Part shown: in pieces, positions 8,901 to 50,281 of the stretch
Layout of the letters: the number at the start of each line of letters is the position of its first letter
Numbering within the stretch: the first letter of the stretch is position 1
NCBI GenBank assembly: GCA_000146465.1
Contig: CP001951.1
Reading direction: 5' to 3' (one strand)
Length of the DNA stretch: 64,000 nt
Position numbers and translations under genes: made by a program
Notes under the pieces: model-generated
The model's database searches: none
What the model saw: only the letters and a program-made list of their open reading frames with translations
What the model was told of the DNA's origin: nothing

Positions 8901-10183
8901 AGATGTGCAACAAGTTCCAAACATTCTATAAAAAGATTATAGAGTTACGGGCCAAGCAGATTAACTTACTTGCCGATGAAAGACCAGAAAAGCTTTTCAG
9001 AAACTTCAACAGCCTCATAAGTCATTCAATACTAACGTTCAGTAACAAAAAGAAATATCTGTCAAGAATGCTCTCTGTGGAAGGAGTGGATAAATCCTCG
9101 TCTTTCTACAGAGTTTATGTAGATAGGAACGATGTTCTGAGGAGTTCTTATTTTCAAGTGATGGCAAAAAGTCCTGAAGAATTCAGAACAAGAAGACTCG
9201 AGATAAAGCTAACTGGAGAAGAAGGCTTGGACTATGGAGGATTGACAAGAGAATGGCTGGTTCTTCTCTCAAAGGATTTTCTTGATCCTAACTTTGCTCT
9301 TTTTGAGTTTTCCACCGAGGACAAGACAGTAGCTGTTCCATGCAAGAACAGTTATGTTAATCCCGAGCACTTGTCTTACTTCAAGTTTGTCGGGCGTATC
9401 ATGGCAAAGGTTATAATGGATGGAAACTTCATCAACTTGTATCTACCGAAGTTTATCTACAAGCATATCCTTGGGAAGAGTTGCGATCTACAGGACCTAG
9501 AATCTGCAGACCCTGAATTCCACAAATCGCTTGTCTGGATAAGAGATAATTCTGTTGGGAAATCTCTAGGACTAACATTTTCGTTCGATGACGTGAGCTT
9601 TGGAGTTCATAGAACTGTCGAATTAGTAAAAGGAGGAGCAAATATCTTTGTGGATGACTCGAACAAGGAAGAATATATAAAGTTGGCGACACAATACAGG
9701 CTATTTGATGGAGTCGAACTTCAATTATCTGCACTAAAGTCAGGACTGTTTGAAATACTTGGAAATAGAGCTCTTGAGATGTTTGACGAGAATGAACTTG
9801 AGCTTCTAATCTGTGGAATTCCTGATATAGACATTGATGACTGGAAGAGTAATACCCTTTATTATGGATATACAGAGAGCTCAAAGACCGTTATTTGGTT
9901 TTGGAAAGCAGTTAAAAGCTTTGACTCTGTCAACAGGGCAAGACTTCTACAATTTGTGACTGGAACATCCACCTTGCCGTTTGAAGGGTTCTCGCATTTA
10001 CAAGGAAACAATGAGATCCAAAAGTTCTCGATCCATAAGATCTCTGACAGAACAGACAGCCTTCCCACTGCGCATACATGCTTTAACCAACTTGTACTTC
10101 CAGAGTATTCCTCCTATGAAAGCCTTCTGAAATATTTGATGTTGGCCATCAATGAATGCTCTACAGGATTTGGTTTTATCTAA
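2942..10183 (+). CDS. giant HECT-domain E3 ubiquitin ligase (HUWE1/Tom1-like)
   Basis: 2413-aa uninterrupted ORF. C-terminal HECT domain (...LPTAHTCFNQLVLPEYSSYESLLKYLMLAINECSTGFGFI with catalytic Cys). Long acidic D/E stretch (DDYGDDESREIEYY...ESDEAESS) as in HUWE1. CCCCC lies 2 nt upstream of the ATG. Confidence 0.85.
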   Translation: MEERFEWRWMGSPLEEKLHEYIRSMVEEEDLDCLAKKITAYFDIWPFKEFSLRCWRILSDKLIDIISSLEKKYFSEGIQMFKMSEEDKSLLIGIFKLFQRIFGYSRQRHPLDVSTQVMKFIYAMDLDVVIEAHKMLVFCLNYSIGLDEFSDDHDILFKCLGINSELNGEKILSLSEKAFVSIPKDLEGEDVFWTLKKNVDEYGRGNLVFELRQRINNENRDGLNVLKVLGTCIFLILAKGEGAFDEIVEKIDFGEIWRFAGEELSENMEFAIMNLLDILIYDEFDFGRISRILELSNTKGFFYKRFVNGFDEWTFERHMVFLIYNTLVGSQKTKYLKMNVLMEVLPKFHECSPDVRYHFLRTVRMHCKETNSRGTAEFISRNGVGILTEYLRHAEKYDVNENVNLKYSLKILSEIYMDERNRGVVGNFEDSPFLDVIVATIQKLCLFDSRIVSVCIGILSSFMFEEPLNLPIFMERGVNVVLKTQLSVEHTLEYVSAFVSYIDAFSLNLSFQKEISHGEYLFKLLVLCREEEFLGSMSNTNKMVSLLNVLIMHHPIFKEDILKFYRFEIGYLKNLFSEESSSLLVEKEYCIEIFNNFFSLVEKMEVYPEEKDADGFFNNVFDLVTNPAYSCNMQNFFKGSFGEVYRTIYRESRTSLDKPFEQLISDTMKIIELSRMSEEQDTRDWKKAMKMEQWCGAEADELIFSYESQISLACILCEDFMELIDNGVKTRLFKAMADLYLMLIRFSGAFISISNFEEHRFLSTYRSIRLKLEESTTKESIRLHLLQSVYLCNLFLLQRMYLLEIKDSFDKTLELVERLVEVMALEGDDSITLGLRAIERLSKNFGKEHYEAISREWFIKSLLKPHSRSDRLIAVINFLSSQLSSKINSDPKLRSMLLEYLEEIDISVSSDLRKVELSNMVIEAIGRIFGDGGSLSDDEMEMIFRIYERFYISPLCSRLMIKRMIRLPRFTMRLVRIKAFPTFQYFLMKDEKVYEHACFIVNRFFEYSDEFIEMASNVLLFGTVGRCPHRIDIKEIGKKISGLVMSEVSSPKVLFFLIMYFRLLHRLGMPRHCGFDLGKLISRVKTCDEMTLMRILISYIITPDIDSILERSGIPSRRIRSKDREFLKSHDFLIYRDYDLFVEKCLKKSGLGPIDGICFKHGCNRTFSLKGEEISVSDKEIDCSKTFIRKLVLLLDTQEYFGMVIQLLCEMMFNHPSLLHDICRYQVLDIVYERCIRKMDVSSKHKVTGELHWGIMLFVIGLYSEVLLSKSSTGSEKKSETEQENTRKSLPSVSDFLLEKIKDGSNEDFLNVSFILVRSLTPLFILRHEDEEDTTMERFREISIFMGSVGIFEKIIKRIIAVDESDPKYITCIQCSLDYLGRVFRHCYGDILQDLDDYGDDESREIEYYSLVSEDHGFEESIFDSDESYFFDDPPFHEIEEERAMESDEAESSSQSENTVFIKSIENDHEMPTEMYLISSEYYNISAESRTEIEALMCRKLYVDLIDSSTSCYTWMVNNFQKSIVCELREPSVHCKEPERSLNEDDKDEGYVTDGEEKMIWNFEPTNDEDNLEDTNEALDTSNPPDREEIEEENEDVGSSESDVGSQNGEIPTLDPDNLNRMEEDELNEVLKAYFDERRSLSLTYIPLHTGFYERLSSRVRPMFEEMERVYRESFFYDIRTESTKESDEEIMETKENLLEMDLSTFEEFIKKSIVEKDFPFAKSWKLVDALSKDTKMKSVVFKVSNSMISSISSSQEGDLNNYDAVKFRRTLCFLLSIVKSSIRYYGYFRENPEIVRKVFILLGKVKLTNDLLRLVTDFSVIFRKDKDFVFGQDIDLENILGCFGRMVDSECFNLLEEFMENTADHFGPRFLDIILVEIKQQFSILSKDIGKEFPSDAFLESQKIFLRLWKMMTKVIGRSNLCSEERDIALLSLMLNPLWNVFFENQKNKESIEDLINVSDIYEAFFVVGKVFENRFGETENTGCAEMCNKFQTFYKKIIELRAKQINLLADERPEKLFRNFNSLISHSILTFSNKKKYLSRMLSVEGVDKSSSFYRVYVDRNDVLRSSYFQVMAKSPEEFRTRRLEIKLTGEEGLDYGGLTREWLVLLSKDFLDPNFALFEFSTEDKTVAVPCKNSYVNPEHLSYFKFVGRIMAKVIMDGNFINLYLPKFIYKHILGKSCDLQDLESADPEFHKSLVWIRDNSVGKSLGLTFSFDDVSFGVHRTVELVKGGANIFVDDSNKEEYIKLATQYRLFDGVELQLSALKSGLFEILGNRALEMFDENELELLICGIPDIDIDDWKSNTLYYGYTESSKTVIWFWKAVKSFDSVNRARLLQFVTGTSTLPFEGFSHLQGNNEIQKFSIHKISDRTDSLPTAHTCFNQLVLPEYSSYESLLKYLMLAINECSTGFGFI

Positions 10184-19220: not shown

Positions 19221-21311
19221 CTAGACAATGTTCTTAAGAGGGAGTGTGAGATTAACAACAATGTTCTCTTCAGTTGTGTCTCTGTCCACACAGAAATACC
19301 CAATGCGTTGGAATTGGAATCTATCCTCGACACCGGCTTCACTAATTCTTTTGTCGCAAAGCCCGTGGACAATTTTTAGACTATCTTTGTTCATCTCCTC
19401 AAGATAGGTAGAGTCCTTTGGACTGAATGATGTCCAGAGTGGAGAATACATCCTCATCTCTACTCGGACACAGTCCGAACTAACCCAGTGGATGAACTTT
19501 TTAGGAATCCCATCCCATCTTTCTGCAAGGATCCCGTCTTCAGTTACCTTTACAACCCTTATTGGATAAAGCATGTACAACCCAACAGGCTGATCAAGTG
19601 TAAGTCTTAAAAAGTCTCCATCTCCCTTATCCATAAAGTCCGACTTCTCTATGTATATGACTGGAGTAAAGGGAACATTTCTGCTTACCTCTGATCCAGG
19701 GAAATCTGGAATAGATACACTACAGGGCTCGGCGTTCATTATTGTTACCTTTAAAGGATCTCTTACACACATGATCCTTCTAGAAGTTCTGTTGAGATTG
19801 TCTCTAACAAAATTCTCGAGTTTCTTTACATCCACTATTGTTTCAGCAAAAGTAAGTCCAAGACTCTTACAGAACTCGTTGATGGCTTCAGGAGGGAATC
19901 CTCTCCTTCTCATGCCCTTTATTGTAAAAAGACGGGGATCGTCCAACTCTATCCCATACTTCTTCAGAGGGACCAGCTTCCTCTTGCTCAAAACCGTATT
20001 ACTTATGTTCAGACGGCTAAACTCCCATTGGATTGGTTTGTAAATCTCGAGCTGGTCAAGCAGCCAATGATAGCTCTCCTGCCGTGTAAAGAACTCTCTC
20101 GTGCAGAAGGAGTGTGTTACATCTTCCAGGCTGTCAGACACGCAAAGAGCGAACTCATATGTTGGATACACGGTATATCTCACCTTTTTCATAGGATGCA
20201 CTGCATTCAGTATTCGAATCCCTATCAAGTCAAGCATTAGAGGATTCTTTGTATTCGTATCCATTTTGAATCGAAGACATGCTGTTCCTTCTTCCCACTT
20301 ACCATCAACCATCTCCTGAAAGATTCTTAAATTCTCCTCGACCGACCTGTTTCTGTATTGGCTTAGATGTGATCTTTCATTCATGTTGTCTGATGTGTAT
20401 TGTCTTCTTCTCTCACATATTTCCTCCTGGCTTAAGTGGCAGACATATGCTTTTCCCTTTTTTATAAGCTGAAATCCAAACTCAACCATCTTGTCGAAGT
20501 AATCGCTTGATGCAGTAACCTTATAGGGCTCAAACCCAAGCCATCGAACGTCCTCATAAATCGAATCAAAGTACTCCACTTCTTCGTTCTTTGGATTTGT
20601 ATCATCATATCTCAAATAAGTATATCCTCCAAATTTCTTGGCATATTCAAAGCTCAAATTTATTGCCTTTGCATGCCCAATATGGAGAATCCCGTTAGGT
20701 TCAGGAGGAAATCTGGTAACCACTCTCCCTCCTGTTCTCTTTAAGTGCGCTTGCCTTATCTCTTCACTGACCTGTGGGGTTTCCCCAGGTTTTGGAAGTT
20801 TCCTGATCTCTCCTTCTTCCAGCCAGTCTCCTCCTTCTAGGTTTTCCTCATGCTCTTCCACATCATCGGGGATCTTATTTATTTCTTCCATCACAATTCT
20901 GAAATCCGCGCAAGGCATGGTATTTCTTGCTTTGCTAAGCATATCTTTCTTTGATAATCCCTCTCTCCTCATCTTAGCAATGTTATTCTTTATACTCTCC
21001 TCGTCAACTTCATTGGACTTTACAAAGGAAACCATTTCCTCGGCCGAAACCTCTTTTTTCCCCATATGTTTTAAGCACTCCTTCAGCATACTCTCGTTCT
21101 TTATGGTTCCAGACTCAATGAGATTGGCTAGCAACTCAACATTGGCATTTCTTGAAGCTGTGCAGGCAAGAGTATATAAAAGTCTGTTGGAGAAGGATCT
21201 TCCAGAAAAAATCTTCTCCATATTCTTCACAACCTGTTCCTTTTTCATCACTTCATGTCTCTTTTCAGAGGAAATCTCTAACTTCTCAAAAACCTCTTCA
21301 AGATTTAGCAT
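19221..21311 (-). CDS. QARS: glutaminyl-tRNA synthetase with eukaryotic N-terminal extension
   Basis: Class I HIGH region RFPPEPNGILHIGHAKAI in a Gln/Glu-type catalytic core, with an about 190-aa N-terminal domain. ORF-track start 21326 is TTG. The first ATG (MLNLEEV) is preceded by AAATTT- and CCC-like motifs. Confidence 0.8.
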   Translation of the reverse strand: MLNLEEVFEKLEISSEKRHEVMKKEQVVKNMEKIFSGRSFSNRLLYTLACTASRNANVELLANLIESGTIKNESMLKECLKHMGKKEVSAEEMVSFVKSNEVDEESIKNNIAKMRREGLSKKDMLSKARNTMPCADFRIVMEEINKIPDDVEEHEENLEGGDWLEEGEIRKLPKPGETPQVSEEIRQAHLKRTGGRVVTRFPPEPNGILHIGHAKAINLSFEYAKKFGGYTYLRYDDTNPKNEEVEYFDSIYEDVRWLGFEPYKVTASSDYFDKMVEFGFQLIKKGKAYVCHLSQEEICERRRQYTSDNMNERSHLSQYRNRSVEENLRIFQEMVDGKWEEGTACLRFKMDTNTKNPLMLDLIGIRILNAVHPMKKVRYTVYPTYEFALCVSDSLEDVTHSFCTREFFTRQESYHWLLDQLEIYKPIQWEFSRLNISNTVLSKRKLVPLKKYGIELDDPRLFTIKGMRRRGFPPEAINEFCKSLGLTFAETIVDVKKLENFVRDNLNRTSRRIMCVRDPLKVTIMNAEPCSVSIPDFPGSEVSRNVPFTPVIYIEKSDFMDKGDGDFLRLTLDQPVGLYMLYPIRVVKVTEDGILAERWDGIPKKFIHWVSSDCVRVEMRMYSPLWTSFSPKDSTYLEEMNKDSLKIVHGLCDKRISEAGVEDRFQFQRIGYFCVDRDTTEENIVVNLTLPLKNIV

Positions 21312-21880: not shown

Positions 21881-22372
21881 ATGGGATATAATTTGGCAAT
21901 GACCCCAGCTTTGTTCATGTCAAGGTTGCCCAATCTTGCCTCCTCTCGTATGAATGAAATAAGAAAAGTCTACATAGAAGCCAACAATAGAATTGTTGAG
22001 GAAATAGATGCAGTAACAGAAAAGTTCTCAAAAGAAGTTGAGACCATTCCTAACATCTCGGCCAGCGTAAGGATATATCTTGAAGAAAAAATCAGATCTA
22101 TACGTGAGTTTGTTGTCGATAGTATTGGATTTTCAATAGGCGAGTTTAGAGCCTTATACAATCCCGATGGAAATGAAAGCATAAAAACGAGAAGATTTCC
22201 AAAGTTCATAACCGAGGCACTAGAAAGGAGCTTTGAGATTGACCAATATCCGTCCGAAGCCGAAAAGTCAAGACTTGCAAAAATATGTAAACTTTCGACA
22301 AAGCAAATAAACAACTGGTTTACGAACAAAAGAAATAGAAGCAAAAGCCATGATGGGGGTAGGCAGTACTAG
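21881..22372 (+). CDS. homeobox protein, typical (60-aa) homeodomain at C-terminus (HD1-like)
   Basis: 163 aa. Homeodomain IKTRRFPKFITEALERSFEIDQYPSEAEKSRLAKICKLSTKQINNWFTNKRNRSK, with WF-N-R in helix 3 and no 3-aa loop extension. Unusually long 5' (343 bp) and 3' (517 bp) intergenic regions. Confidence 0.8.
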   Translation: MGYNLAMTPALFMSRLPNLASSRMNEIRKVYIEANNRIVEEIDAVTEKFSKEVETIPNISASVRIYLEEKIRSIREFVVDSIGFSIGEFRALYNPDGNESIKTRRFPKFITEALERSFEIDQYPSEAEKSRLAKICKLSTKQINNWFTNKRNRSKSHDGGRQY

Positions 22373-22908: not shown

Positions 22909-23478
22909 ATGAACATGATAATGGATATATTGAATCAAGTTATGTATGCTGAAGAATGCTATTTCTCCAACAGAGTTAGCAGAGAGAAATTAATGGAAGA
23001 CATAAGACGTCTTCGGAGTGAATACGAGATTGGAATAATGAGAGACTCTGGAAGAGAAGGAATAAAATTCAAAATGGCATTGCTATTTATTCTTAGAAGA
23101 GTGAGACACAAGATTATACTTGAAGACAGACTCATGGAGATGATTGATTCCGAGGTTGCTTTCGTTAGAGGATGTGTAAGCAGTATCATCTCTGAGCCCT
23201 TCGGAGTCAAGCCTGTAGAAACCATGAGGCCTACACAACAAGAAGCAGAGACCAGGTGTGCCAAACCAAGGACAAGGGCCAACTTCCCTATGGACACTTC
23301 ACAGCTTCTGAGATCTTGGCTTAAAGAGAATATGGATAACCCATATCCATCGGATGCCGAAAAGGCATATCTTTGCCAGAAGACTGGCCTTGGTCCTGCA
23401 CAGATTAATAATTGGTTTATAAATGCTAGGAGAAGAATCTTACCTTTCATGAAAGGAAAGCGTGCGAGTTTCAAATAA
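22909..23478 (+). CDS. TALE-class homeobox protein (HD2-like)
   Basis: ORF-track start 22891 is GTG. The first ATG is at 22909. Homeodomain KPRTRANFPMDTSQLLRSWLKENMDNPYPSDAEKAYLCQKTGLGPAQINNWFINARRR, with a PYP three-amino-acid loop extension and WFINARRR, which defines TALE class. Confidence 0.8.
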   Translation: MNMIMDILNQVMYAEECYFSNRVSREKLMEDIRRLRSEYEIGIMRDSGREGIKFKMALLFILRRVRHKIILEDRLMEMIDSEVAFVRGCVSSIISEPFGVKPVETMRPTQQEAETRCAKPRTRANFPMDTSQLLRSWLKENMDNPYPSDAEKAYLCQKTGLGPAQINNWFINARRRILPFMKGKRASFK

Positions 23479-28239: not shown

Positions 28240-30333
28240 ATGTCGTTTATAGTTGATTTGGAAATTGAAAGTTATTATATGTTACATAGTAAACAGCCCA
28301 TGGAAATGCAAGAAAAAGACCTCGGACCCATAGTAGGATATAATCTTGAACTCAAAGATATTTTTCTTGAGGCTCCCAACAAAGATTTATCCTCAAGCAC
28401 CAAGTATGTTAGGCTGATAAACGGCATATCTACAACTTTTGAATCAGGGAAATTGTCAGTTATCATGGGACCTAGTGGAAGTAGTAAAACAACATTGATA
28501 AATTTGATTGTAGGAATAATTCAAGAAAACTCGAAGGTCTCGGGAAATGTGCTTCTTCGTGGGAAATCAAGAAACCCAAAGACATGGTTAACCCAGGTTG
28601 CCTATCTAAATCAGGATGACTGCATAGTTCCCTACATAACTATCCACGAATATATTTACTTTTGTGTGAGTTGCAGAACAACGAAAAAACAAAGAGGAGG
28701 AAGAAGTATTAATGAGATCATCAATAAGGTGATGAAAAAACTTCATATCGAGGATCTTAAGGACGTAGTTATGACGGCGATTTCAGGAGGGGAGAGGAAA
28801 AGGGTAATGATAGCTGTTGAGTTTGCAGTTTCTCCAGAAGTATTGATTCTAGATGAGCCAACAAGTGGATTGGATTCACATCTTGCATTTGAATTAATTC
28901 AAATGATCAAGGAATATGCTGTTGAAAACAACAAGATTGTGATCACAACAGTCCATCAGCCAGGTCCGGGATTGTTTGATATGTTTGATTATCTCCTGTT
29001 TCTTAATAAGGGATCTTTGGTGTATTCGGGGTCTGCTGATCAATGCGAAAGATTTTTTGATTCTAAAGGAATTCATAGAGTCGGAAATCTGTCTGTGAGT
29101 GAATTTTTATTTGAGCTTTTTTCTGGACAGTCGTATATCTCTGGAATTGAGGAGTATAGAGAGGCCATCAACAAAATGATAGAGTCTGCCGTCCAAGAGG
29201 GAGACTTGAAAATCGAAAACAAAACAATGAGCCAGATCTCTGGCTCTGTAGTTAAGCTTCCATTTAGTTTCTCAAAGGCACTCAAGATAGCTAAAAGAAA
29301 ATGGATTATGGAATGGAGATCTTGGAGGATGATGAGGAATTGGATTTTCGAGATCGTTTTTCTTTTTGTCTATGTCTATTTCTTGTATCCAATGATCTTT
29401 TCTATAGAATTTTTGAATTTTAAAAATCTCCTAAATCTAAACATAAACGAACGTGATGAAACAGAATCAGTTTTTCGTTGGCTTATAGGCTCCTTAAAAT
29501 CCATGATTGATGAATCTCTAGTGGGCAATGTAGATGAGGCAATCAAGTGGGAGATATGTTCATTTCTACTAATTACACTTTCCCTTTTCGGTTCGACAGA
29601 CATACTTGATGGCTTAAATTATGTCCACAGAGAAACATCCAAGGCAACATATGGCATATCCACACTTTACTTCTCGACATGGATTGCCGAAACACCTATA
29701 ACCATTCTAAAATGCTTTGTATTTCTGGGGATTTCATCATCCATAGGAATTCATGGGGGAAATACGTTTGAACTAATCACTTACATAATTGTAGGAAGTC
29801 TTTTAATACTGGCATTTGATATTATGATGAGAAGCATTACATCTTCTAGTGCGTTTAGAAAGTTTCTCTCGATGATCACTTTCATATTTCTGACATCTCT
29901 TACTCCGGAGATTTCATATACATTTACAAAAATACTCTCGGTTCCTTCGGCCGGAAATCTCAGACTTCTGAAACTTTTAAAGTATCCCTCTATACTTCTT
30001 TGGCCTCAAATCTTCTTTCAAGGATTCATGAGGCTGTCTTTCTTTGAAAGGGTGATGTTCCCTAAGGAACCAAACGAGAAGTTTACTTTTATATACAAGG
30101 CCATTATGGGTTCAATAGTGACTCCACGTCTTTATGACCTACATCTTAGTGATGAAGAAAACAGAGAAAAGCTCCTCAATCCTCAGACCAGGTTTCTAGT
30201 AGATCAAAACTACTCTAAATATATTCTATTGCCTCTTGGAGCTACTTCTCTCATAATAGTTATCCTTTTAAGTAATTACTTTCTTGTGAGAAGATTTTCT
30301 CCTCGCTTACAGCTTAACCTATCCAATAAATAA
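28240..30333 (+). CDS. ABC transporter, ABCG (White-type) half transporter NBD-TMD
   Basis: 697 aa. Walker A GPSGSSKTTL, ABC signature ISGGERKRV, Walker B VLILDEPTSGLD, followed by six TM helices. Confidence 0.85.
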   Translation: MSFIVDLEIESYYMLHSKQPMEMQEKDLGPIVGYNLELKDIFLEAPNKDLSSSTKYVRLINGISTTFESGKLSVIMGPSGSSKTTLINLIVGIIQENSKVSGNVLLRGKSRNPKTWLTQVAYLNQDDCIVPYITIHEYIYFCVSCRTTKKQRGGRSINEIINKVMKKLHIEDLKDVVMTAISGGERKRVMIAVEFAVSPEVLILDEPTSGLDSHLAFELIQMIKEYAVENNKIVITTVHQPGPGLFDMFDYLLFLNKGSLVYSGSADQCERFFDSKGIHRVGNLSVSEFLFELFSGQSYISGIEEYREAINKMIESAVQEGDLKIENKTMSQISGSVVKLPFSFSKALKIAKRKWIMEWRSWRMMRNWIFEIVFLFVYVYFLYPMIFSIEFLNFKNLLNLNINERDETESVFRWLIGSLKSMIDESLVGNVDEAIKWEICSFLLITLSLFGSTDILDGLNYVHRETSKATYGISTLYFSTWIAETPITILKCFVFLGISSSIGIHGGNTFELITYIIVGSLLILAFDIMMRSITSSSAFRKFLSMITFIFLTSLTPEISYTFTKILSVPSAGNLRLLKLLKYPSILLWPQIFFQGFMRLSFFERVMFPKEPNEKFTFIYKAIMGSIVTPRLYDLHLSDEENREKLLNPQTRFLVDQNYSKYILLPLGATSLIIVILLSNYFLVRRFSPRLQLNLSNK

Positions 30334-30370
30334 AGGTACTTTAATTTTAAGCCTTGGATTTTTTCCCTGA

Positions 30371-30703
30371 ATGGAGTCTTTGATTCTTTGGGATGGAAGA
30401 AGCATCTGTGGGCTTAAAAAGATTCCAAAGACAATACTAATAGTTGATGAATACAACACAATAACACCCGAGAAAAAAAGTAAGATAAAAGACTCCGTGG
30501 CTGAAATGGACATAGACTTTGAAGAGGAGGCAACACGTTATTCTCTTGTGATCCTTTGCAACACTGTCTTGAGGTTTAACCTAAAGAACCCACTCGTCTT
30601 GGCAGAATGTGAGATTTGGTTTACTAGAAAGACCTTTTCCTCAAAAGTATTTGAAGATGCTCTTATTCACTATTCGGAATGTGAAATAAGAAATGGAGTG
30701 TAA
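30371..30703 (+). CDS. hypothetical protein (110 aa)
   Basis: ATG preceded by TTCCC. The ORF ends (TAA) 8 nt before the corrected UBC12 start. No family recognised. Confidence 0.35.
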   Translation: MESLILWDGRSICGLKKIPKTILIVDEYNTITPEKKSKIKDSVAEMDIDFEEEATRYSLVILCNTVLRFNLKNPLVLAECEIWFTRKTFSSKVFEDALIHYSECEIRNGV

Positions 30704-30710
30704 ACAACCC

Positions 30711-31172
30711 ATGAACCCCCGAGAAGATTCCTCGTTTGCAGCTTTCCGGTTAAAGACCGAGATTGAATCTATCCAACTTCTCCCAGGATCACTGTTGAAT
30801 GTGGATAGGTCTTCTGAGGATAAATACGCTATGGAAATAAAATATTCCATGATGATCACAGAAGGAATATATAAAAATCGCTTGTTTCGATTCAAGATAA
30901 AGATACCGCATGCCTATCCATTTAAGCCTCCAAAGCTTTTGTGTCTGGATAAAGTGTTCCATCCAAATATTGATGATGATGGAAATGTTTGCATGGAGAT
31001 TTTGAGGCTAGGGTGGAGGCCTAGCCATGGGTTGGAGAGCATACTTGTTAATCTTTATGTTATATTTGTTGAAATCACAGGAGAAGATGCATTAAACACA
31101 CAGGCAGGAGATTTATTCAAGCTAGACTATGAAAGGTTTGTAAGAATTGCAAGGGGCCAGGAAAGAATCTAA
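30711..31172 (+). CDS. UBC12: ubiquitin-like (NEDD8) conjugating enzyme E2, Ubc12/UBE2M-like
   Basis: UBC fold with HPNIDDDGNVCMEILRLGWRP (active-site Cys). Best resemblance to UBE2M ([22 protein letters not shown]). Start moved to the ATG at 30711, which is immediately preceded by CCC and removes the overlap with the upstream ORF. Confidence 0.7.
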   Translation: MNPREDSSFAAFRLKTEIESIQLLPGSLLNVDRSSEDKYAMEIKYSMMITEGIYKNRLFRFKIKIPHAYPFKPPKLLCLDKVFHPNIDDDGNVCMEILRLGWRPSHGLESILVNLYVIFVEITGEDALNTQAGDLFKLDYERFVRIARGQERI

Positions 31173-31187
31173 GACTTTCAACAGGAT

Positions 31188-31490
31188 CTAGCGTTTGTGT
31201 ATTATTGCTGCATATTCTTCTTTTGCATCTTCAGACACCTCTTTTAGAACAAAATCAAAAGGTAGAGAAGCCTTATGTCCATCCACCACAATAAAATCCA
31301 AGTTCTTTAGAATTTTCTTATTTAGGGTTTTTTCAACGAACTGGTATGAGGATTTCGGATCAAGTAGTACAACTCCGATATTATTCGGAGAGATTAATAC
31401 TCTCAAAGGTCCATGGACTTCCTCTTTAAATATCCTATTCAAAGTTCCTTTTAGGGAAGAATTCTTCCAGAGGTTTATGGATGCCTCCAT
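31188..31490 (-). CDS. hypothetical small protein (100 aa)
   Basis: Clean ATG. Weak resemblance to the L7Ae/Snu13 fold region (DFIVVDGHKASLPFDFVLKEVSEDAKEEY), not confident. Confidence 0.35.
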   Translation of the reverse strand: MEASINLWKNSSLKGTLNRIFKEEVHGPLRVLISPNNIGVVLLDPKSSYQFVEKTLNKKILKNLDFIVVDGHKASLPFDFVLKEVSEDAKEEYAAIIHKR

Positions 31491-31528
31491 CTCAAGGATT
31501 CATATTGAAGAATTTTTCTATCCATGAT

Positions 31529-31798
31529 ATGGATCTCTCGGGAATGAATAGACTATTTGAAGTTCTCGATAAAATCAAAAATAAAGTAGAAAAGGAGGAA
31601 AGGCCACCCAACCCAAAGGAAGCGTTGGAAAGAGAGCTTCACAAGTTATATCTATGCATATCCTTAGAAATATGCAAGCAAAAGCTTCAAGGATCTGTTG
31701 GTAAGGAAGTTCTTGACAAGGTGAAGGAAATTAAACAATATTTCAAGCACATAGAGAACATCCGGGGTAAAGATCGAAATGATCCTGTACAAAAATAA
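31529..31798 (+). CDS. hypothetical small coiled-coil protein (about 89 aa)
   Basis: The ORF-track start at 31481 would overlap the divergent neighbour's ATG. The internal ATG at 31529 has an AATTTTT/CC context upstream. Helical, K/E-rich. Confidence 0.3.
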   Translation: MDLSGMNRLFEVLDKIKNKVEKEERPPNPKEALERELHKLYLCISLEICKQKLQGSVGKEVLDKVKEIKQYFKHIENIRGKDRNDPVQK

Positions 31799-31806
31799 GA
31801 TGATAC

Positions 31807-32232
31807 TTATTTATTCTTTTTCTCTGCCTTCTTCATTGCTCTCTTGATAGTACCAAAGATCTTATAGCGCTTCTTCCTTTCGTCCTTTCTTACCCTTCTA
31901 GGTGTTATTTGAAGCTCCTTTCCAGTGATCTTTGCTACAACATGCTTCTTCTCAACTGAAGAAAGAACTTCAGCATTTGAATAAATCTTTGCTCTGAGTG
32001 TGGTTCTGTGTGTTCCATACCTATTCTTAAGATTTCCAACTACAATGTTCTTCTTGCTTGTTTGATAGAGCTCAGATATCTTGTCTGTTATTTCCTCTCT
32101 GCTGGGAATAGGCATTCCAGGATGGTATGCAACCACATCCAATTCTTTCCTGGAAAGCAGTTTGTTCTCCTTAAGGCCAGAAATCTCAAGTTCCAAACTC
32201 TATAAGTTAGCTTCAAATACCTCACTTACCAT
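31807..32232 (-). CDS. RPS24: 40S ribosomal protein S24, two exons: join(32232..32230, 32199..31807)
   Basis: Exon 2 matches RPS24 (VVAYHPGMPIPSREEITDKISELY...KKHVVAKITGKELQITPRRVRKDERKKR). The ORF-track frame starts at TTG with an in-frame TAG immediately upstream. An ATG lies 33 nt upstream, followed directly by GTAAGTGAGGTATTTGAAGCTAACTTATAG. Removing this 30-nt intron gives M-SLELEISGLKENKLL... AAAATTTTATCCC lies upstream of the ATG. Confidence 0.75.
32200..32229 (-). other. spliceosomal intron (30 nt) immediately after the RPS24 start codon
   Basis: Minus-strand sequence GTAAGTGAGGTATTTGAAGCTAACTTATAG: canonical GTAAGT 5' site, CTAAC branch point 6 nt from the 3' AG. Confidence 0.7.
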
Positions 32233-32320
32233 TTCGTGAGGGATAAAATTTTCGGAAATATCTGTCTTTCAGGCCTCTCGACCTTCGAAAATATTTTCCT
32301 TAACAGAAAGGCCCTTTGAA
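32233..32320. promoter_or_regulatory. 88-bp bidirectional promoter region of the divergent RPS24/RPS30 pair
   Basis: Contains AAAATTTTATCCC on the RPS24 side and GGCCCTTTGAA on the RPS30 side. These are AAATTT-like and CCC-like signals of the kind reported upstream of microsporidian start codons. Confidence 0.5.
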
Positions 32321-32536
32321 ATGGTAAGTGGAACTTCGGAGTCCTGGAAATAACTTTAGGCAACTATTACAATCAACAAAGCTGGAAAGGTTAGGAATCA
32401 AACACCAAAGGATCCTGTTGTCGAAAAGGAAAGGAAGAAGTGCGGGCGCTGCAGACAACGCTTGAAGTTTGAGAAGAGAAACGAGATGGGATATTTTGAT
32501 GTGATGGGAAAGATGAAGCTGAATCCTCAGTCATGA
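32321..32536 (+). CDS. RPS30: 40S ribosomal protein S30, two exons: join(32321..32323, 32360..32536)
   Basis: Not in the ORF track. ATG followed directly by GTAAGTGGAACTTCGGAGTCCTGGAAATAACTTTAG (36 nt). The spliced product is [59 protein letters not shown]. It matches yeast Rps30 (AGKVKSQTPK...GKMRMNPGPS). An in-frame TAG immediately precedes exon 2, so no unspliced ORF exists. Confidence 0.75.
32324..32359 (+). other. spliceosomal intron (36 nt) immediately after the RPS30 start codon
   Basis: GTAAGTG...AAATAACTTTAG. Same 5' site and branch/3' architecture as the RPS24 intron. Confidence 0.7.
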
Positions 32537-32704
32537 AAGATAAAATAAAATCTTATTAGCCTCTATGGCCGAATTTTCCGTTATAAAACATATCTAATGG
32601 ATTACCCTTGCTATTTTCGAAGCTTTCTTGGTTTTTACCAAGGATGTCAAAGAGTAGCAGATAGAAAGCTGCAGGCACCAAGGGTGCTAGGCACACATTT
32701 TAAT

Positions 32705-33115
32705 TTAGACTTTACTATTAGTTTGACACTCCTCCTGTGTCAAATCTGTGTTTTTCTTCTCGTCATTCTCCATACTATTTTTTTCCGGCTCTTCGGCCTC
32801 AGCTCCTACTGCAACAAGTATAACGGTGTCTCCCCTGATAAAGACATTTCCAAGCTTTCTAGAAAACTCGCTACCCTGCCTTTTCTTTCTTCCCTTATTT
32901 CTACCTCGCGCAGTCCCAAACTCCCTAGCTTCTCTTACCAATAAGTTATAATGCCGATCATATGCTACCACTTTTCCTGTGACCTTTCTGTTGTTTCGTA
33001 AAGAAATCAACACAGGAATCATCTTAACCATGGCCCGGCGAACAAGTGAAAGAGGCCCTTTCATTTCCATCGACTCCTTCTCCCCAGGATTATCTGGATT
33101 GTTCGGAAGAAACAT
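32705..33115 (-). CDS. SMD2: small nuclear ribonucleoprotein Sm D2
   Basis: Sm fold with the SmD2-specific insertion. PVLISLRNNRKVTGKVVAYDRHYNLLVREAREF...RKLGNVFIRGDTVILV matches human SNRPD2 [33 protein letters not shown]...ISKMFLRGDSVIVV. Confidence 0.75.
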   Translation of the reverse strand: MFLPNNPDNPGEKESMEMKGPLSLVRRAMVKMIPVLISLRNNRKVTGKVVAYDRHYNLLVREAREFGTARGRNKGRKKRQGSEFSRKLGNVFIRGDTVILVAVGAEAEEPEKNSMENDEKKNTDLTQEECQTNSKV

Positions 33116-33172
33116 CTATGGGCCCATCCAAACATTAAAATAACCAAATATTTATTACATGTCTTAAGACAA

Positions 33173-34009
33173 TTATTCATTCTTTCTCTTAAGCTTCACA
33201 AACTCCACTAGGCGATCAATAAACCTGCCAGAAGTCTTTCCATGGTAAAAGTTTTCTATAAATCCAGAAATAATCTCGTTGGACACTCTTTCCCAGTACC
33301 TCATTGCAATTCTTATTTCTCGCCTTATGTCTTCAATCTCTCTTTGAATGTCAACATTCTTGATCATCTCATTCATTTTCTTACTCATCTTTATTCTCTT
33401 CATATGAAGGAACGATATATTCAGGTCCTTTGCAGAAACTCCTCTCTCAAGGTTTCTTCGGACATATACATCATAGTTCCTCACTATGTCTGTTATTATT
33501 CCACTAGTACTAATTCCCTTTGTTCTTTTGATCGGTATAAACATCCCCATGTCTTTTACAAACTTGTAGATATCGTCCTTATTCTCTCCCTTGTACGGAA
33601 TGTCATCATGCGCAACAAAATCTATTCTATGCTTTTGAAGGAATTCCGATGTTAACTCCCATGGTGCACTTGTTATAACTTCATCAACATATCTGCAATG
33701 GATTAGTCCTTCAGCTCTTTCTTTTTCGTTCATGACAAGATTTCCCTTAAGTCTTATAGTTATGTCGTCATCTGTAACCCCAACCAGCAAGTAGACATTT
33801 GGAAAAAGATTCTTTGCTTGTTTCAAACTTCGGGCATGTCCATAATGAAATAGATCGTACACCCCATCGCAGTATATTCTAACAGGCCTATTCACAGGGA
33901 CCTTATACATCCCAACTTCAGAGGTCATCTCTTCATACTCGAAGGTATTTCTGTCGGGATATGTGGGAGCCATCATCTTGTATTTCTCTGTGTCGTTTCT
34001 CTTCATCAT
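33173..34009 (-). CDS. PCT1: choline-phosphate cytidylyltransferase (CCT/Pct1)
   Basis: [38 protein letters not shown] (HxGH motif), [34 protein letters not shown] and [26 protein letters not shown] are near-identical to PCYT1. Confidence 0.85.
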
Positions 34010-34128
34010 GGGCTAGGTTTGCAGAACGAAAAATAAAACCAAACAAATTCTCTGTCTGTGTAAGGTTTCTTCACAGTAATCAGAAACAATCAAAGTTACT
34101 AAATCTTTGCCTTTGTTTATTAGAATTA

Positions 34129-34740
34129 TCATTGGATATAGTCCAAGTCCTGAGGAATCCCAAAGCTACTGTTAAACTCTGACTTTTCCATTGCAAACTT
34201 GTTACAGATATAATCTTGTATAACAAAAATGTTGTCAACAATCTTATTATACTCGTCGATTACTTTCTTTCTATCTCCGATAAGCTTGTCATAGACTATA
34301 GGATCTGTTTCTTCGAACTTCTTTAGCTCTTTTTTTTGTTCTTCCTCCATCTTCTCTAGGGAATTCAGCCTTTCTTCCAGCCTGCTTCTCTCTTCCGTGT
34401 AGTTCTTGGACTTTCTTTCGTCTTCTAAGTGTTTTCTCTTGTTAGAAATGTCTTCAGACATTCTTTTACATTCGTCCATAAGCTCTTTACACTTCAACTT
34501 CTTCTTTTGGACTCCTTCAGATGCAAACGACCAATACAGATTGGAGGTTCCAACCTTCTCGACAGTGACAAGACCTTCGTCAACAAGCTGTTGTAGAATT
34601 TCTTTGATCGTATTTACCACTATCCCCTTCTTCGAGCCCAGAGTTTCCAATTCCTGTAACTTGAAGAATGACTTACTTGTTCTTATTATCTCCAATAGAA
34701 TGCTTTTCTTCTGGTCTGCTTTCATCTTGACTGTTGCCAT
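34129..34740 (-). CDS. MND1: meiotic nuclear division protein 1 (Mnd1, Hop2-Mnd1 recombination cofactor)
   Basis: 203 aa from the internal ATG (MATVKMKADQKKSILLEIIRTSKSFFKLQELETLGSKKGIV..GTSNLYWSF...SSFGIPQDLDYIQ). This aligns end-to-end with human MND1 (..KDLEKIAPKEKGI..GTSNYYWAF...RTFGIPEDFDYID). The longer ORF-track frame would overlap the divergent downstream gene. Confidence 0.8.
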   Translation of the reverse strand: MATVKMKADQKKSILLEIIRTSKSFFKLQELETLGSKKGIVVNTIKEILQQLVDEGLVTVEKVGTSNLYWSFASEGVQKKKLKCKELMDECKRMSEDISNKRKHLEDERKSKNYTEERSRLEERLNSLEKMEEEQKKELKKFEETDPIVYDKLIGDRKKVIDEYNKIVDNIFVIQDYICNKFAMEKSEFNSSFGIPQDLDYIQ

Positions 34741-34810
34741 GACTACAGGGCTCCTCTCGAAGTAGCTTATTAGTGTTTCCAATACTTTATTTCCATAGGA
34801 TCTATACCCC

Positions 34811-36076
34811 ATGATGTCGTTAGAGCTGACCAAAGAGAATATCAATGCAGTTTCTCTTGAGCTTGTGAAGAACAAAAAGATGTTTGACAAGAACGTGAAT
34901 TATGTAATGGGTTTCATGCTTAAATCTTTTCCCGAGAAAAACGAGCTTCTTAGTAGAATCAAAGTCCTCAATATTAAATCAAGATCAGCAAAGAAGATAG
35001 ACCCCGAGTCCGATGTTATGGAACAGATAGCTATGAATGTCTTTGCCATAAAGAATCTTGACGAAGGAAGTTTCACCAAGAACATGCTAGCCCTCTTCAG
35101 GGACCCAAGTTCCTTTTCTCAAGCATTCCTTACCTACTTCTATTCTAACTTAAATCTTAGCACTACGAAGACAGATGAGATCTTGAACGGGCTCGTAGAA
35201 TTACTCTTATCTGAGTCCAAACTCAAAAAAAGCTTCATGAATTTTATGAATTCGATTGAACTCTCGGAGGATTCTGAATCTATTTCCCTGGAGGAGGCCA
35301 AAAGTCTACACAAAGCCTCAGATGATCACACCTTTGAAAAGATAATAAATAAGGAAAGTTATGATGAGTCATCAAGCACAGTGATGTCTCTAGTCTCCCT
35401 GGACGACTCTGAAGAAATCAAAAGAATCGATACATCTATTTCCCTGCTGTTTGAAGGAAAGAGAGAAAAGATGTCTATGCTGTCGATACTAGTGTGCACT
35501 AGAGTATTGAACATTATAAGGATCATACTGGAAAACAACTACCCAAGAGATGTAGATGTTATTCCTGTTCTTATGTACATCGCAGAGATAGACCAGACAA
35601 TTTTCAAGAAATCAATGTCTGCTATCAAGATAATATTAAGGAAAACAGATTATAGAGACAAAGAAAAGCTGTTTGAAATGTTCTGTGCTCTACTCGAACG
35701 AAACCCAGGCATTATAAGAATGGCAATGCTTTTTGTGGATACTTGTGGAAAACACTTCAACTGGCCGAGATTCCTTGAAATTATAGATGGGAACGAAGAG
35801 ATTGATCTGGATGTCGTGGATAGGTCTTACATTCCAAATTCTTCCTTCTATGAATTTATATTGTTTGCCGAGGATCCAAGGAGATACATGAAGACAATCA
35901 AAAGCATGATTAGAAACGAGTTAGACTCTTCTCTTCTTAGAGATTTAAAAGAAAAGATTAATGGAAGACCTGATCTAAAAGATATAAAGCCGATCAAAGA
36001 TGCTATAAGCTCCCGTCTTAAGCTATTAAGCCAAAAAAAGTGTTCTAAAAAGGAAAGGAAAGATAACAGTAACTAA
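34811..36076 (+). CDS. hypothetical protein (421 aa), helical repeat-like
   Basis: Clean ATG 70 bp from the divergent MND1 start. No recognised motif. Confidence 0.4.
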   Translation: MMSLELTKENINAVSLELVKNKKMFDKNVNYVMGFMLKSFPEKNELLSRIKVLNIKSRSAKKIDPESDVMEQIAMNVFAIKNLDEGSFTKNMLALFRDPSSFSQAFLTYFYSNLNLSTTKTDEILNGLVELLLSESKLKKSFMNFMNSIELSEDSESISLEEAKSLHKASDDHTFEKIINKESYDESSSTVMSLVSLDDSEEIKRIDTSISLLFEGKREKMSMLSILVCTRVLNIIRIILENNYPRDVDVIPVLMYIAEIDQTIFKKSMSAIKIILRKTDYRDKEKLFEMFCALLERNPGIIRMAMLFVDTCGKHFNWPRFLEIIDGNEEIDLDVVDRSYIPNSSFYEFILFAEDPRRYMKTIKSMIRNELDSSLLRDLKEKINGRPDLKDIKPIKDAISSRLKLLSQKKCSKKERKDNSN

Positions 36077-38404: not shown

Positions 38405-40744
38405 ATGAAATGCCAATACTGCGAAGTGGAGGAACTGCTCATAGAGTGTGTGGGGTGTGGAAAGCATTTCTGTAACTCGCGTAGTGCTTCATCGATATCT
38501 CATATAGTATTTCATCTTGTAAAGGCAAAGCATAAGTCAATCCGAATTGGTGGAGACATCAAGTGCAGAAAGTGCGGAGAAGATAATTTGTTCAAACTCC
38601 TTGAGAACAATGGGAAGATTTTCTGCAATGGATGCAGCTCGGGTAGAATGGTGGTTGAAGAGAGATGTCTCACTATAATCAAAAGCCCTGAAGTACAAGG
38701 AAAAAGATTGACGAAGCAACAGATGGCAGAGATGGAAGAGAAGAGTATGGCGTCTCTTCCCTATGTTAAATCAAGGTTTGAAGCCAAGGAGTATGTTGAA
38801 GTGTTTTCTTCGCTAATTGAAGCTGAGTGCAAGAAGGAAAGAGAGATAAAGGAATCGATGAGGCAAGAGAATGTATTTGTTCGATGGGAGAAACTAAAGT
38901 ACTGCTATTTTTACTTTCAGAATGGAGATAGTGAGCTGAAGATCAACATTGGAGATGAAATTAGATTGACACATAAGAGTGGATTTGTCCTACACGGATT
39001 TGTCAGTGGGGAGACTTTTAGCGAGGAGCTGAAAGTGGAGATAGAAACACCTGGAGACTATCCAAGAAGTGGATATACTGTGGAGTATCTCTGGAGAGGA
39101 ATATGCTACGAGAGAATGGAATGGGCCTTAAGAAAGTTATACAATACATATAAGAAGGAGACAGACAAAATCAAAAGAAATAAGAATAAGAATGACGAAA
39201 GAAAGCCATGCGACAAAGGAATAGATGTCTGTAGGGATTTGAGTGTACAAAGACCAACGAATAGAGGCGATATCGGGGCTATGGGGGATGAAGGAAAGAT
39301 GCAGAAAGGAAGGAAAAGTCTTAATGAAGGCCCATCGATATTTGAATATATCTTAAAAGGATATAAGGAAGGGATTGGGAATTCGGGGCATATTTTTCCG
39401 GTGCCGGATCTTCCCAGACTTAATGCTTCTCAAGAAATAGCTGTAAGAGCAGCTCTTGGAAGGAAGGTGACTCTGATACAGGGGCCTCCGGGGACAGGAA
39501 AGACCTTGGTCTCGTCTGCTATTGTTTATAACCTAGTAAAACACTACGGGGGAAAGGTTCTTGTTGTTGCTCCCAGCAACACTGCTGTAGATCAACTTAC
39601 CTTAAAGATACATAAGACGGGACTAAGAGTTCTGCGAGTGATGAGTAGGAGAAGGGAATGCGGGCAATCGGATGTGAACTTTCTTTCTCTTCATGAAAAC
39701 TTGAAGGAGCTGCAAGAGGGAAGAAAGAAAAAAGATGAGTGCTATGGAGACCATAATAGATACAACAGCATTTACAACGATGAAACCAACGAGTCATTGA
39801 AAAAACACCTTTTGAATCAAGCAGAAGTTATCACTTGCACGTGTGTAACATCTGGCCAAAAGATGTTCAATAAGTTCCGATTCCACTATGTATTGATTGA
39901 CGAAGCAGTCCAATCGACAGAGCCCTTGAGCCTTATCCCATTAGTGTATGGGTGTAAAAAGCTTGTGCTTGTTGGAGACCACAAGCAGCTGGGGCCCACT
40001 ATTCTTTGCAAGAAGGTAGCACAAGCGGGATTCAAGCAAAGCTTGTTTGAAAGACTGATTTCAATTGGTGTGGTTCCCTATGTACTATCGGTTCAGTACA
40101 GGATGGATGCGGATCTTTGCGAATGGCCTTCTGAGATGTTTTACAACGGAGAACTTCTTACTGGAGGAAAGAACTTCTGCAGATTTGATCTTGGGATTCC
40201 AACGAACTTCTTCTATGTATGTTATGGAAGAGAAGAAGTCAGCCCAAGCGGAACCTCGTTTGTTAATCAGGCCGAAGCCTTGCATTGTGAAAGCATAATA
40301 AGACATCTGTTCAAGTGTGGTGTTACAGAGAATCAAATAGGAGTGATAACACCATATGAGGGACAAAGATCTTATATTCTAAATAGAATATTTGGAGCCG
40401 AGCCTGGAAATCTTGAGATAAGCAATGTCGATGGTTTTCAGGGAAGAGAAAAGGACTTTATAATTGTTAGTCTTGTCCGAAGTAACCTATACCAGGGAAT
40501 AGGGTTTGTTGGTGACAAGAGAAGAATGAATGTGATGCTGACAAGAGCAAAGCATGGGTTGGTAATAATAGGAAATCCAATGACTTTGATGAGACACGAT
40601 ATGTGGAGTAATCTCTTGTCCTTCTATGATAGGAAAGGCCTTGTGATGGAGGGCCCTTTACACAATCTCAGACGAGTTGTTATAAAGCCCCCCAAGCTCT
40701 TCGACTTTAGAGAGATAAGCAGATCTCTTATGAATCAAATATAA
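38405..40744 (+). CDS. UPF1: UPF1 RNA helicase (nonsense-mediated decay)
   Basis: N-terminal CH zinc-knuckle domain (CQYCEV...CVGCGKHFCNSR...SHIVFHLVKAKHKSI...CRKCGEDNLF). SF1 helicase motifs [13 protein letters not shown] and LVGDHKQLGP, plus the motif VI region. Confidence 0.9.
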   Translation: MKCQYCEVEELLIECVGCGKHFCNSRSASSISHIVFHLVKAKHKSIRIGGDIKCRKCGEDNLFKLLENNGKIFCNGCSSGRMVVEERCLTIIKSPEVQGKRLTKQQMAEMEEKSMASLPYVKSRFEAKEYVEVFSSLIEAECKKEREIKESMRQENVFVRWEKLKYCYFYFQNGDSELKINIGDEIRLTHKSGFVLHGFVSGETFSEELKVEIETPGDYPRSGYTVEYLWRGICYERMEWALRKLYNTYKKETDKIKRNKNKNDERKPCDKGIDVCRDLSVQRPTNRGDIGAMGDEGKMQKGRKSLNEGPSIFEYILKGYKEGIGNSGHIFPVPDLPRLNASQEIAVRAALGRKVTLIQGPPGTGKTLVSSAIVYNLVKHYGGKVLVVAPSNTAVDQLTLKIHKTGLRVLRVMSRRRECGQSDVNFLSLHENLKELQEGRKKKDECYGDHNRYNSIYNDETNESLKKHLLNQAEVITCTCVTSGQKMFNKFRFHYVLIDEAVQSTEPLSLIPLVYGCKKLVLVGDHKQLGPTILCKKVAQAGFKQSLFERLISIGVVPYVLSVQYRMDADLCEWPSEMFYNGELLTGGKNFCRFDLGIPTNFFYVCYGREEVSPSGTSFVNQAEALHCESIIRHLFKCGVTENQIGVITPYEGQRSYILNRIFGAEPGNLEISNVDGFQGREKDFIIVSLVRSNLYQGIGFVGDKRRMNVMLTRAKHGLVIIGNPMTLMRHDMWSNLLSFYDRKGLVMEGPLHNLRRVVIKPPKLFDFREISRSLMNQI

Positions 40745-49489: not shown

Positions 49490-50281
49490 TTAATTAGCTT
49501 CTTTCAACAATACAAACATATCTTTCTTGTAATAGTTCGAATTCATATGCAGGTTGTGGATGACATCGTGTAATGGGATGGCCCTTATGGAGGAAACCGT
49601 TCCCTCATGAGCTATTTTTATATTTATGATATGAATGTGAAGTCTAAGATATGTTGGCCTATAGTGGAAGAACATAAATACATGCTTAGGATCCAAAGCA
49701 AACTTTGTTGCCAAGATGGTGTTTGCGTTTTCCTGGGCTCTTATCAGAAGATTGTGAGAATTTATGTCTCTTATTGTTTTGAGGGCAGGATCTTTGAATA
49801 TCACCAAAAGGTGGAGATGGTCTATCAATTGCTTATTCCACTTATAGTCTGGAATAATCATTATCTCTTGGTCCTCATACAAGATTTCCTCATTTACATT
49901 TCTTTTACTTGGATCGATGATATTATCCATCCAACTAGTACTTATGTGGCCGTAGTTTTTTAGAAAATCCAAGTATTCCTCGTAAGTTTCTCTGATGTAA
50001 ATGGGACTCGAAGAGTATTTCCTGATGTGCTCTTCTGTTGCCGGATATATGAGTCTAAAACTGATGGGCATATTCCCTAAGACTTTATAGGTATAGTACA
50101 CATCGTTTGACTGAATTCTTTCCATTGGAAGAGATAGGAACTGGGAAAAGGTGTCTTGTGGAACGGGTTGATTTGGAAATATCAATATAGCCTTTTGGCC
50201 TTCAACCTTGCCTATGTAAAGATGTCCCTCGGAGCTTGTAAGACTTTCCTCTAGAATGAATTTCTTGATTACATTTTCCAT
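49490..50281 (-). CDS. DCS1: scavenger mRNA decapping enzyme DcpS (HIT family)
   Basis: The C-terminal HIT domain aligns with human DcpS (IIPDYKWNKQ..DLHLLVIFKD...FFHYRPTYLRLHIHII versus LIFPDLKYP..DLHLLAIYHR...YLHYLPSYYHLHVHF). Histidine motif present as R-L-H-I-H. Confidence 0.7.
   Translation of the reverse strand: MENVIKKFILEESLTSSEGHLYIGKVEGQKAILIFPNQPVPQDTFSQFLSLPMERIQSNDVYYTYKVLGNMPISFRLIYPATEEHIRKYSSSPIYIRETYEEYLDFLKNYGHISTSWMDNIIDPSKRNVNEEILYEDQEIMIIPDYKWNKQLIDHLHLLVIFKDPALKTIRDINSHNLLIRAQENANTILATKFALDPKHVFMFFHYRPTYLRLHIHIINIKIAHEGTVSSIRAIPLHDVIHNLHMNSNYYKKDMFVLLKEAN

Follow-up and report, generated by a model that had tools for sequence, protein, structure and literature searches.

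Two ribosomal protein genes that lie head to head in a stretch of 64,000 nt of contig CP001951.1 (assembly GCA_000146465.1; the whole stretch is referred to as the window) raise the question of how their reading frames are connected to a start codon. An earlier note, made from the letters of the window, had proposed that RPS24 (eS24) and RPS30 (eS30) are each interrupted by an ultra-short intron directly behind the ATG. From the sequence and its comparison with related genomes, we consider it very probable (about 0.96) that eS24 on the minus strand and eS30 on the plus strand form a divergent pair with ATGs 88 nt apart, each carrying a single U2-type mini-intron immediately after the ATG.

The features of the locus are collected in Table 1. 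In both genes the ATG is followed by GTAAGTG and the intervening segments measure 30 and 36 nt, exactly as the earlier note had it, to the base. Both segments also end with AG, and the strict 5' splice site of the short-intron class is present in each. The RPS24 intron has the form GTAAGTG...GCTAACTTATAG with the branch A at 32207, and the RPS30 intron the form GTAAGTG...ATAACTTTAG with the branch A at 32353. The distance from the A of the TAAC motif to the 3' junction, given beforehand as 5–7 nt, amounts to 7 nt in S24 and 6 nt in S30. An in-frame stop had also been placed just upstream of exon 2: in both introns this is a TAG that serves as the 3' splice site as well, and the RPS30 intron holds an additional TAA within its branch motif. 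Translated without splicing, each gene runs into a stop at codon 11.

Table 1. Position of the eS24/eS30 genes, their introns and their upstream signals in the window.
Feature	Position	Strand	Remarks
RPS24 (eS24) exon 2	32199-31807	-	TAA stop 31807-31809 included
RPS24 intron	32229-32200	-	GTAAGTGAGGTATTTGAAGCTAACTTATAG; 30 nt, phase 0, GT-AG
RPS24 initiator ATG	32232-32230	-	whole coding part of exon 1
Spacer between the RPS24 and RPS30 ATGs	32233-32320		88 nt; putative bidirectional promoter
RPS24-side signals	32240-32252	-	CCC-like motif 32240-32242 (GGG on the plus strand); AAATTT-like AAAATTTT 32245-32252
RPS30-side signals	32287-32314	+	GAAAATATTTTCC 32287-32299; CCC-like motif 32312-32314
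RPS30 initiator ATG	32321-32323	+	whole coding part of exon 1
RPS30 intron	32324-32359	+	GTAAGTGGAACTTCGGAGTCCTGGAAATAACTTTAG; 36 nt, phase 0, GT-AG
RPS30 (eS30) exon 2	32360-32536	+	TGA stop 32534-32536 included

Removal of the two introns yields predicted products of 131 aa (MSLELEISGLKENKLLSRKELDVVAYHPG...) for RPS24 and of 59 aa for RPS30. They are identical to the entries ADM12478.1 (S24) and ADM12479.1 (40S ribosomal protein S30) of Encephalitozoon intestinalis ATCC 50506. The spliced RPS24 product matched the Pfam profile PF01282 (Ribosomal_S24e) with 87 bits against a gathering cut-off of 24.5 (E = 9.1e-25, profile positions 4–90 of 95), and the spliced RPS30 product matched PF04758 (Ribosomal_S30) with 62.7 bits against a cut-off of 27 (E = 3.6e-17, profile positions 4–58 of 58). 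Among solved structures, RPS24 matched the eS24 chain of the E. cuniculi ribosome (7qep_D4, E = 1.2e-66), a chain of 131 aa whose deposited sequence begins with MSLELEI. For RPS30 the top matches in the PDB search came from 6rm3, 7qca and 6zu5, the best being eS30 of 6rm3 (E = 8e-17); an E. cuniculi eS30 chain, for which an identity of about 95% would be expected, was not found in this search. Pfam scores above the cut-offs together with exact GenBank matches thus bear out the identities that the two genes had been given. The assignment to an Encephalitozoon-type genome stands as well, the window being nuclear DNA of E. intestinalis: the spliced proteins equal the E. intestinalis ATCC 50506 entries and the architecture matches the literature (PMC6349667).

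It had further been stated that both genes are missed by ORF-based calling. This applies to a naive listing of open reading frames only, whereas the curated annotation contains both introns. Even in the mechanical list the body of RPS24 is present (31807–32196, 129 aa), although only by way of a bacterial TTG start; beginning at the first in-frame ATG would cost 29 residues. RPS30, described as absent, is indeed lacking as a full gene, but a fragment of 24 aa with a TTG start is listed.

The public record of the locus leaves little room for novelty. Between 29321 and 35536 the window is identical at 6216 of 6216 nt to two E. intestinalis assemblies, and the neighboring genes are exact E. intestinalis matches too (SmD2, ADM12480.1; choline-phosphate cytidylyltransferase, ADM12481.1). 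The public gene ranges comprise 426 nt for the 131 aa of S24 and 216 nt for the 59 aa of S30; the public models therefore already hold introns of 30 and 36 nt. The spliceosomal introns of E. intestinalis were found manually, and the intron complement is common with E. cuniculi (PMC4355639). The RPS24 and RPS30 introns are thus already known, as their class is published and both are annotated in E. intestinalis ATCC 50506.

We next consider how often such signals are expected without any function. In first-order Markov simulations the composite of an ATG and GTAAGT...TAAC...AG had an expectation of 0.017 per 64-kb window, but it was found twice, 88 nt apart. For ATGGTAAGT by itself the expectation was 0.39, and 3 copies are present. 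That both matches to the splice consensus are accidental could be argued from the loose pattern GTAAGT...TAAC...AG, for which about 0.5 occurrences per window are expected. However, each of the two composites abuts a ribosomal-protein exon that has no start codon of its own, and the composite is conserved in six taxa; with the comparative data refuting it, a coincidence has a negligible probability. The scan GTAAGT(N15-40)TAAC(N3-7)AG suggested in the earlier note recovers the S30 intron but misses that of S24, because only 14 nt precede the TAAC there and N15-40 demands more; about 0.5 chance matches per window are expected for it.

With a relaxed intron pattern we obtained 17 matches in the window. 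Just those of RPS24 and RPS30 follow an ATG, and where any of the others falls inside a gene, the public model of that gene is intron-free. The third ATGGTAAGT (20297–20305, minus strand) is located inside a class-I tRNA-synthetase reading frame and is not an intron. A GTAAGT...TAAT...AG candidate at 8969–8926 on the minus strand is antisense to a HECT ligase ORF of 2413 aa and was attributed to chance. When a public model was taken as intron-free if the gene length equals 3 x (residues + 1), no introns other than those of S24 and S30 were found in the public models for 3569–25122, 29321–35536 and 37531–59468. A search of the 64-kb window for snRNA genes gave no Rfam match at gathering scores, which is uninformative for a genome of 2.3 Mb.

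The sequence elements suggest the following course of expression. Transcription would start a few nucleotides upstream of the AUG; as 5' UTRs in E. cuniculi are shorter than 7 nt (PMC2803860), exon 1 can be put at about 5–10 nt here. The 5' end of U1, ACUUACC, would pair perfectly with G|GUAAGU, the first G being supplied by the AUG, and U2 would recognize the YUAAC branch site 6–7 nt from the 3' AG. Splicing would then link the AUG to AGU... in eS24 and to GCA... in eS30, while translation of unspliced RNA would end after 10 codons and give no protein. In the DNA, the last letter of the ATG and the GTAAGT behind it complement the Encephalitozoon U1 motif exactly. A full set of U1, U2, U4, U5 and U6 has been described in four Encephalitozoon species, E. 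intestinalis included, with ACUUACC as the U1 motif (PMC5499648). RNA sequencing confirmed the splicing of every annotated intron in E. cuniculi (PMC3629993); in that study the S24 and S30 orthologues are named only on a figure axis. Since sequence alone gives no proof of splicing, we infer splicing in E. intestinalis from the comparison of relatives and from these E. cuniculi data.

This comparison covered the locus in three strains of E. cuniculi, in four of E. hellem and in E. romaleae, and a protein search added further relatives. Gene order is unchanged between E. intestinalis and these three species. Aligned with one another, the four species show little or no variation in the ATG, in the 5' splice site, in the branch/3' motif and in the codons that open exon 2, and the TAAC motif is invariant in all of them; the intron interiors diverge and contain indels. 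The S24 and S30 introns measure 30 and 36 nt in E. intestinalis, 29 and 45 nt in both E. cuniculi and E. hellem, and 30 and 35 nt in E. romaleae. Ordospora colligata has introns of 30 nt (S24, starting with GTAGGT) and 45 nt (S30). An Encephalitozoon-like relative from SRR21633403 (Logan, L017; GC 56%, gene order unchanged) has an S24 intron of 27 nt whose branch motif is TAAT and whose 3' end is AAG, and an S30 intron of 45 nt starting with GTAGGT. All six taxa thus keep the ATG, the 5' splice site, a TAAC or TAAT branch motif and the AG at the same intron position. Across them the lengths differ by non-multiples of 3 (27–30 nt in S24, 35–45 nt in S30), and still the predicted spliced products begin with MSLELE... 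and MA(G/T)... in 6 of 6 cases; in the four Encephalitozoon species the N-termini read MSLELEI... for S24 and MAT(I/T)TINKAGK... for S30.

These data also bear on a reading in which the segments are never removed, the proteins start elsewhere (for eS24 for example at the TTG at 32196) and the ATG-GTAAGT motifs are relics. In its favor, the TTG-started ORF spans nearly all of eS24, and one predicted ribosomal-protein intron of 27 nt was found to be unspliced by 5' RACE in E. cuniculi (PMC2803860). It fails to explain the S24 intron of E. cuniculi and E. hellem, whose 29 nt shift the frame of the ATG and yet leave all signals in place: as ATG and body lie in different frames, only splicing joins them. 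In eS30 no start at all precedes the conserved N-terminus, and exon 2 runs for 34 codons before it offers a TTG. Promoter signals stand exactly before the intron-proximal ATGs, and intron-free relatives encode the spliced form. We regard this reading as highly improbable and retain that of two spliced mini-introns.

Two of the relatives lack the S24 intron. In the genome from SRR21023573 (Logan, L016 1440–1896, GC 50%) the reading frame passes straight from the ATG into NLELEV..., and the encoded eS24 is 66% identical; the signal AAAATTTTATCCC is located immediately 5' of this ATG, which directly follows AAAATTTTATCCCTTACGG. Within 1.5 kb of this eS24 gene no eS30 was found, and the upstream neighbor is a different gene of 438 aa, so loss of the S24 intron and break-up of the gene pair occur together in this genome. 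Vairimorpha necatrix (L015) carries an intron-free S24 as well. Such genes are naturally occurring counterparts of the product that splicing is predicted to yield.

The eS30 introns of 45 nt of E. cuniculi (L005 3004–3048) and E. hellem (L007 3004–3048) each contain a small perfect hairpin. The hairpins read GTCTC-TCG-GAGAC and GAGTCT-TGG-AGACTC, their arms differing between the two species, and their folding energies are not significant. The eS30 introns of E. intestinalis (32324–32359) and E. romaleae lack 9–10 nt in and around the hairpin.

The spacer between the two ATGs has a variable center and, in the alignment, a conserved block beside each ATG. Signals of the AAATTT-like and CCC-like type have been described upstream of microsporidian ribosomal-protein genes (PMC2803860), and on both sides of the spacer an AAATTT-like box precedes a CCC triplet that stands a few nucleotides from the ATG, all within about 15–35 nt upstream of it. 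On the minus strand the RPS24 side reads AAAATTTTATCCCTCACGAA-ATG, the initiator lying directly downstream of the conserved signal, and the RPS30 side reads GAAAATATTTTCC / AAAATATTTTCC...GGCCCTTTGAA-ATG. Both are near-identical to the upstream entries for E. cuniculi, 'AAAAATTTATCCCTCGCGAA (intron)' for S24 and 'AAAATATTTTCCTTGAAAGAAAGGCCCTTTGAA (intron)' for S30, in Additional file 3 of PMC2803860, where the orthologues of Nosema ceranae and Anncaliia algerae carry no intron mark. The signals of the two genes stand in mirror orientation, and the spacer may act as a bidirectional promoter.

A further question concerns the purpose of the introns and leaves their status as introns untouched. 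They might be spliced but mostly retained and act chiefly as a throttle, in which case inefficient or autoregulated splicing instead of the promoter would set the output of eS24 and eS30 from the shared spacer. For 30 of 37 E. cuniculi introns less than 50% of the transcripts had undergone splicing, with very low levels for the short ones, and a regulatory role was suggested by the authors in analogy to the autoregulation of yeast ribosomal-protein genes (PMC3629993). With in-frame stops in both introns, retained transcripts would be dead, and genes for UPF1 and DcpS are present in the window. On the other hand, a regulator would have neither structure nor a conserved interior to act on, as we detected no structured RNA inside the two introns (folding z-scores of -1.4 to +0.9) and their interiors vary freely. 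Relatives manage without the S24 intron, and low splicing is explained equally well by a degenerate spliceosome, the view preferred by the authors of the E. cuniculi study (PMC3629993). Overall such control of output by splicing appears unlikely. Still less likely is an extended version in which both introns and the shared 88-nt two-way promoter form one joint throttle that co-tunes eS24 and eS30 through inefficient or feedback-controlled removal of both; if it were true, the in-frame stops in the branch and 3' motifs would be kept on purpose and silence unspliced RNA, but nothing in this analysis points specifically to it. The preferred reading thus remains that of two ordinary post-ATG mini-introns.

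The UPF1 helicase gene is located at 38405–40744 on the plus strand (UPF1_Zn_bind and AAA_11/12 domains) and the gene of the scavenger decapping enzyme DcpS at 49490–50281 on the minus strand. Few RNA-decay factors have been noted in E. cuniculi; UPF1 (ECU10_1640) is one of them and is relevant to what becomes of transcripts that retain an intron and have a stop at codon 11.

Short 5'-biased introns in ribosomal-protein genes of Encephalitozoon were reportedly described by Biderre in 1998 and Katinka in 2001, and the work of Lee et al. from 2010 is said to be their key catalogue; Grisdale treated them in 2013 (PMC3629993). The class comprises extremely short GT-AG introns, mainly in ribosomal-protein genes and usually located right after the initiator ATG (PMC6349667); later counts arrive at 36 introns of 23–76 nt for each Encephalitozoon species, compared with 30 for Ordospora (PMC4313915). 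The introns of RPS24 and RPS30 share its boundaries, motifs, length, position and the stop or frameshift upon retention, their lengths falling inside the published range of 22–76 nt (PMC3629993). They display every testable sequence feature of the class, and as we found no difference from it they are ordinary members. The closest known counterpart is the S24/S30 locus of E. cuniculi GB-M1 (AL590449.1), with the same divergent pair, neighbors and intron position after the ATG, the same branch/3' motifs (CTAACTT.TAG, TAACTTTAG) and the same AAATTT-like and CCC-like signals. There the introns are 29 and 45 nt long instead of 30 and 36 nt, the 5' splice site of S30 is GTAGGT instead of GTAAGT, and the interiors are partly unalignable.

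A second group of microsporidian introns is likewise spliceosomal, of the GT-AG type and found in a reduced genome: the long introns (about 76 nt) of the genes for the poly-A-binding protein and S23, which have a conserved interior with a stem-loop and are about 80% spliced (PMC6349667). They are two to three times as long as the introns of RPS24 and RPS30, whose interiors are variable and unstructured. In Saccharomyces cerevisiae, ribosomal-protein genes are enriched in introns, which take an extreme 5' position at the start codon or close behind it; in RPS24 and RPS30 of yeast, too, an intron directly follows the ATG. These yeast introns comprise hundreds of nucleotides and are efficiently spliced.

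Several observations were made on the surroundings of the locus. The gene of SmD2, a core spliceosomal Sm protein, lies at 32705–33115 on the minus strand (Pfam LSM domain) and is convergent with RPS30, with 168 nt between the stops; that a part of the spliceosome adjoins two of its few substrates is probably a coincidence. On the other side the stop of RPS24 is 8 nt away from that of a convergent gene of 89 aa ending at 31798, and the 3' ends of both transcripts therefore overlap or abut. The stop codon of RPS24 shares letters with an AATAAA (AATAAATAA). The longest ATG ORFs at 30693–31172 (159 aa) and 31481–31798 (105 aa) exceed the public models (153 and 89 aa), which begin at downstream ATGs. 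For the ubiquitin-conjugating enzyme the choice of start codon varies among species (159 aa in E. romaleae). Farther away, two adjacent homeodomain genes (21917–22372 and 22909–23478, both on the plus strand; Pfam Homeodomain / Homeobox_KN) are located within intergenic stretches that are unusually long for this genome.

Given that the introns are in GenBank for this strain and that their class was studied from 1998 to 2013, the finding carries little weight as a discovery. As a positive control it serves well: a reading made without tools recovered two mini-introns, the right genes and the right type of organism. In relatives the architecture of RPS24 and RPS30 still defeats automated annotation. 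The public eS24 of E. romaleae has 122 aa and begins at an internal ATG (L010 2483–2851), with the upstream ATG and the 30-nt intron intact. In the O. colligata assembly GCA_052575955.1 (L014 957–1872) eS24 is called as a 'hypothetical protein' of 123 aa and eS30 is not called, yet both introns and the full eS30 are present; the eS24 model in E. cuniculi CP091432.1 (L004 2489–2913) has 126 aa. A search for ATG+GTAAGT...TAAC...AG combined with the AAATTT/CCC signal would mend the calls of eS24 in E. romaleae and of eS24 and eS30 in Ordospora.
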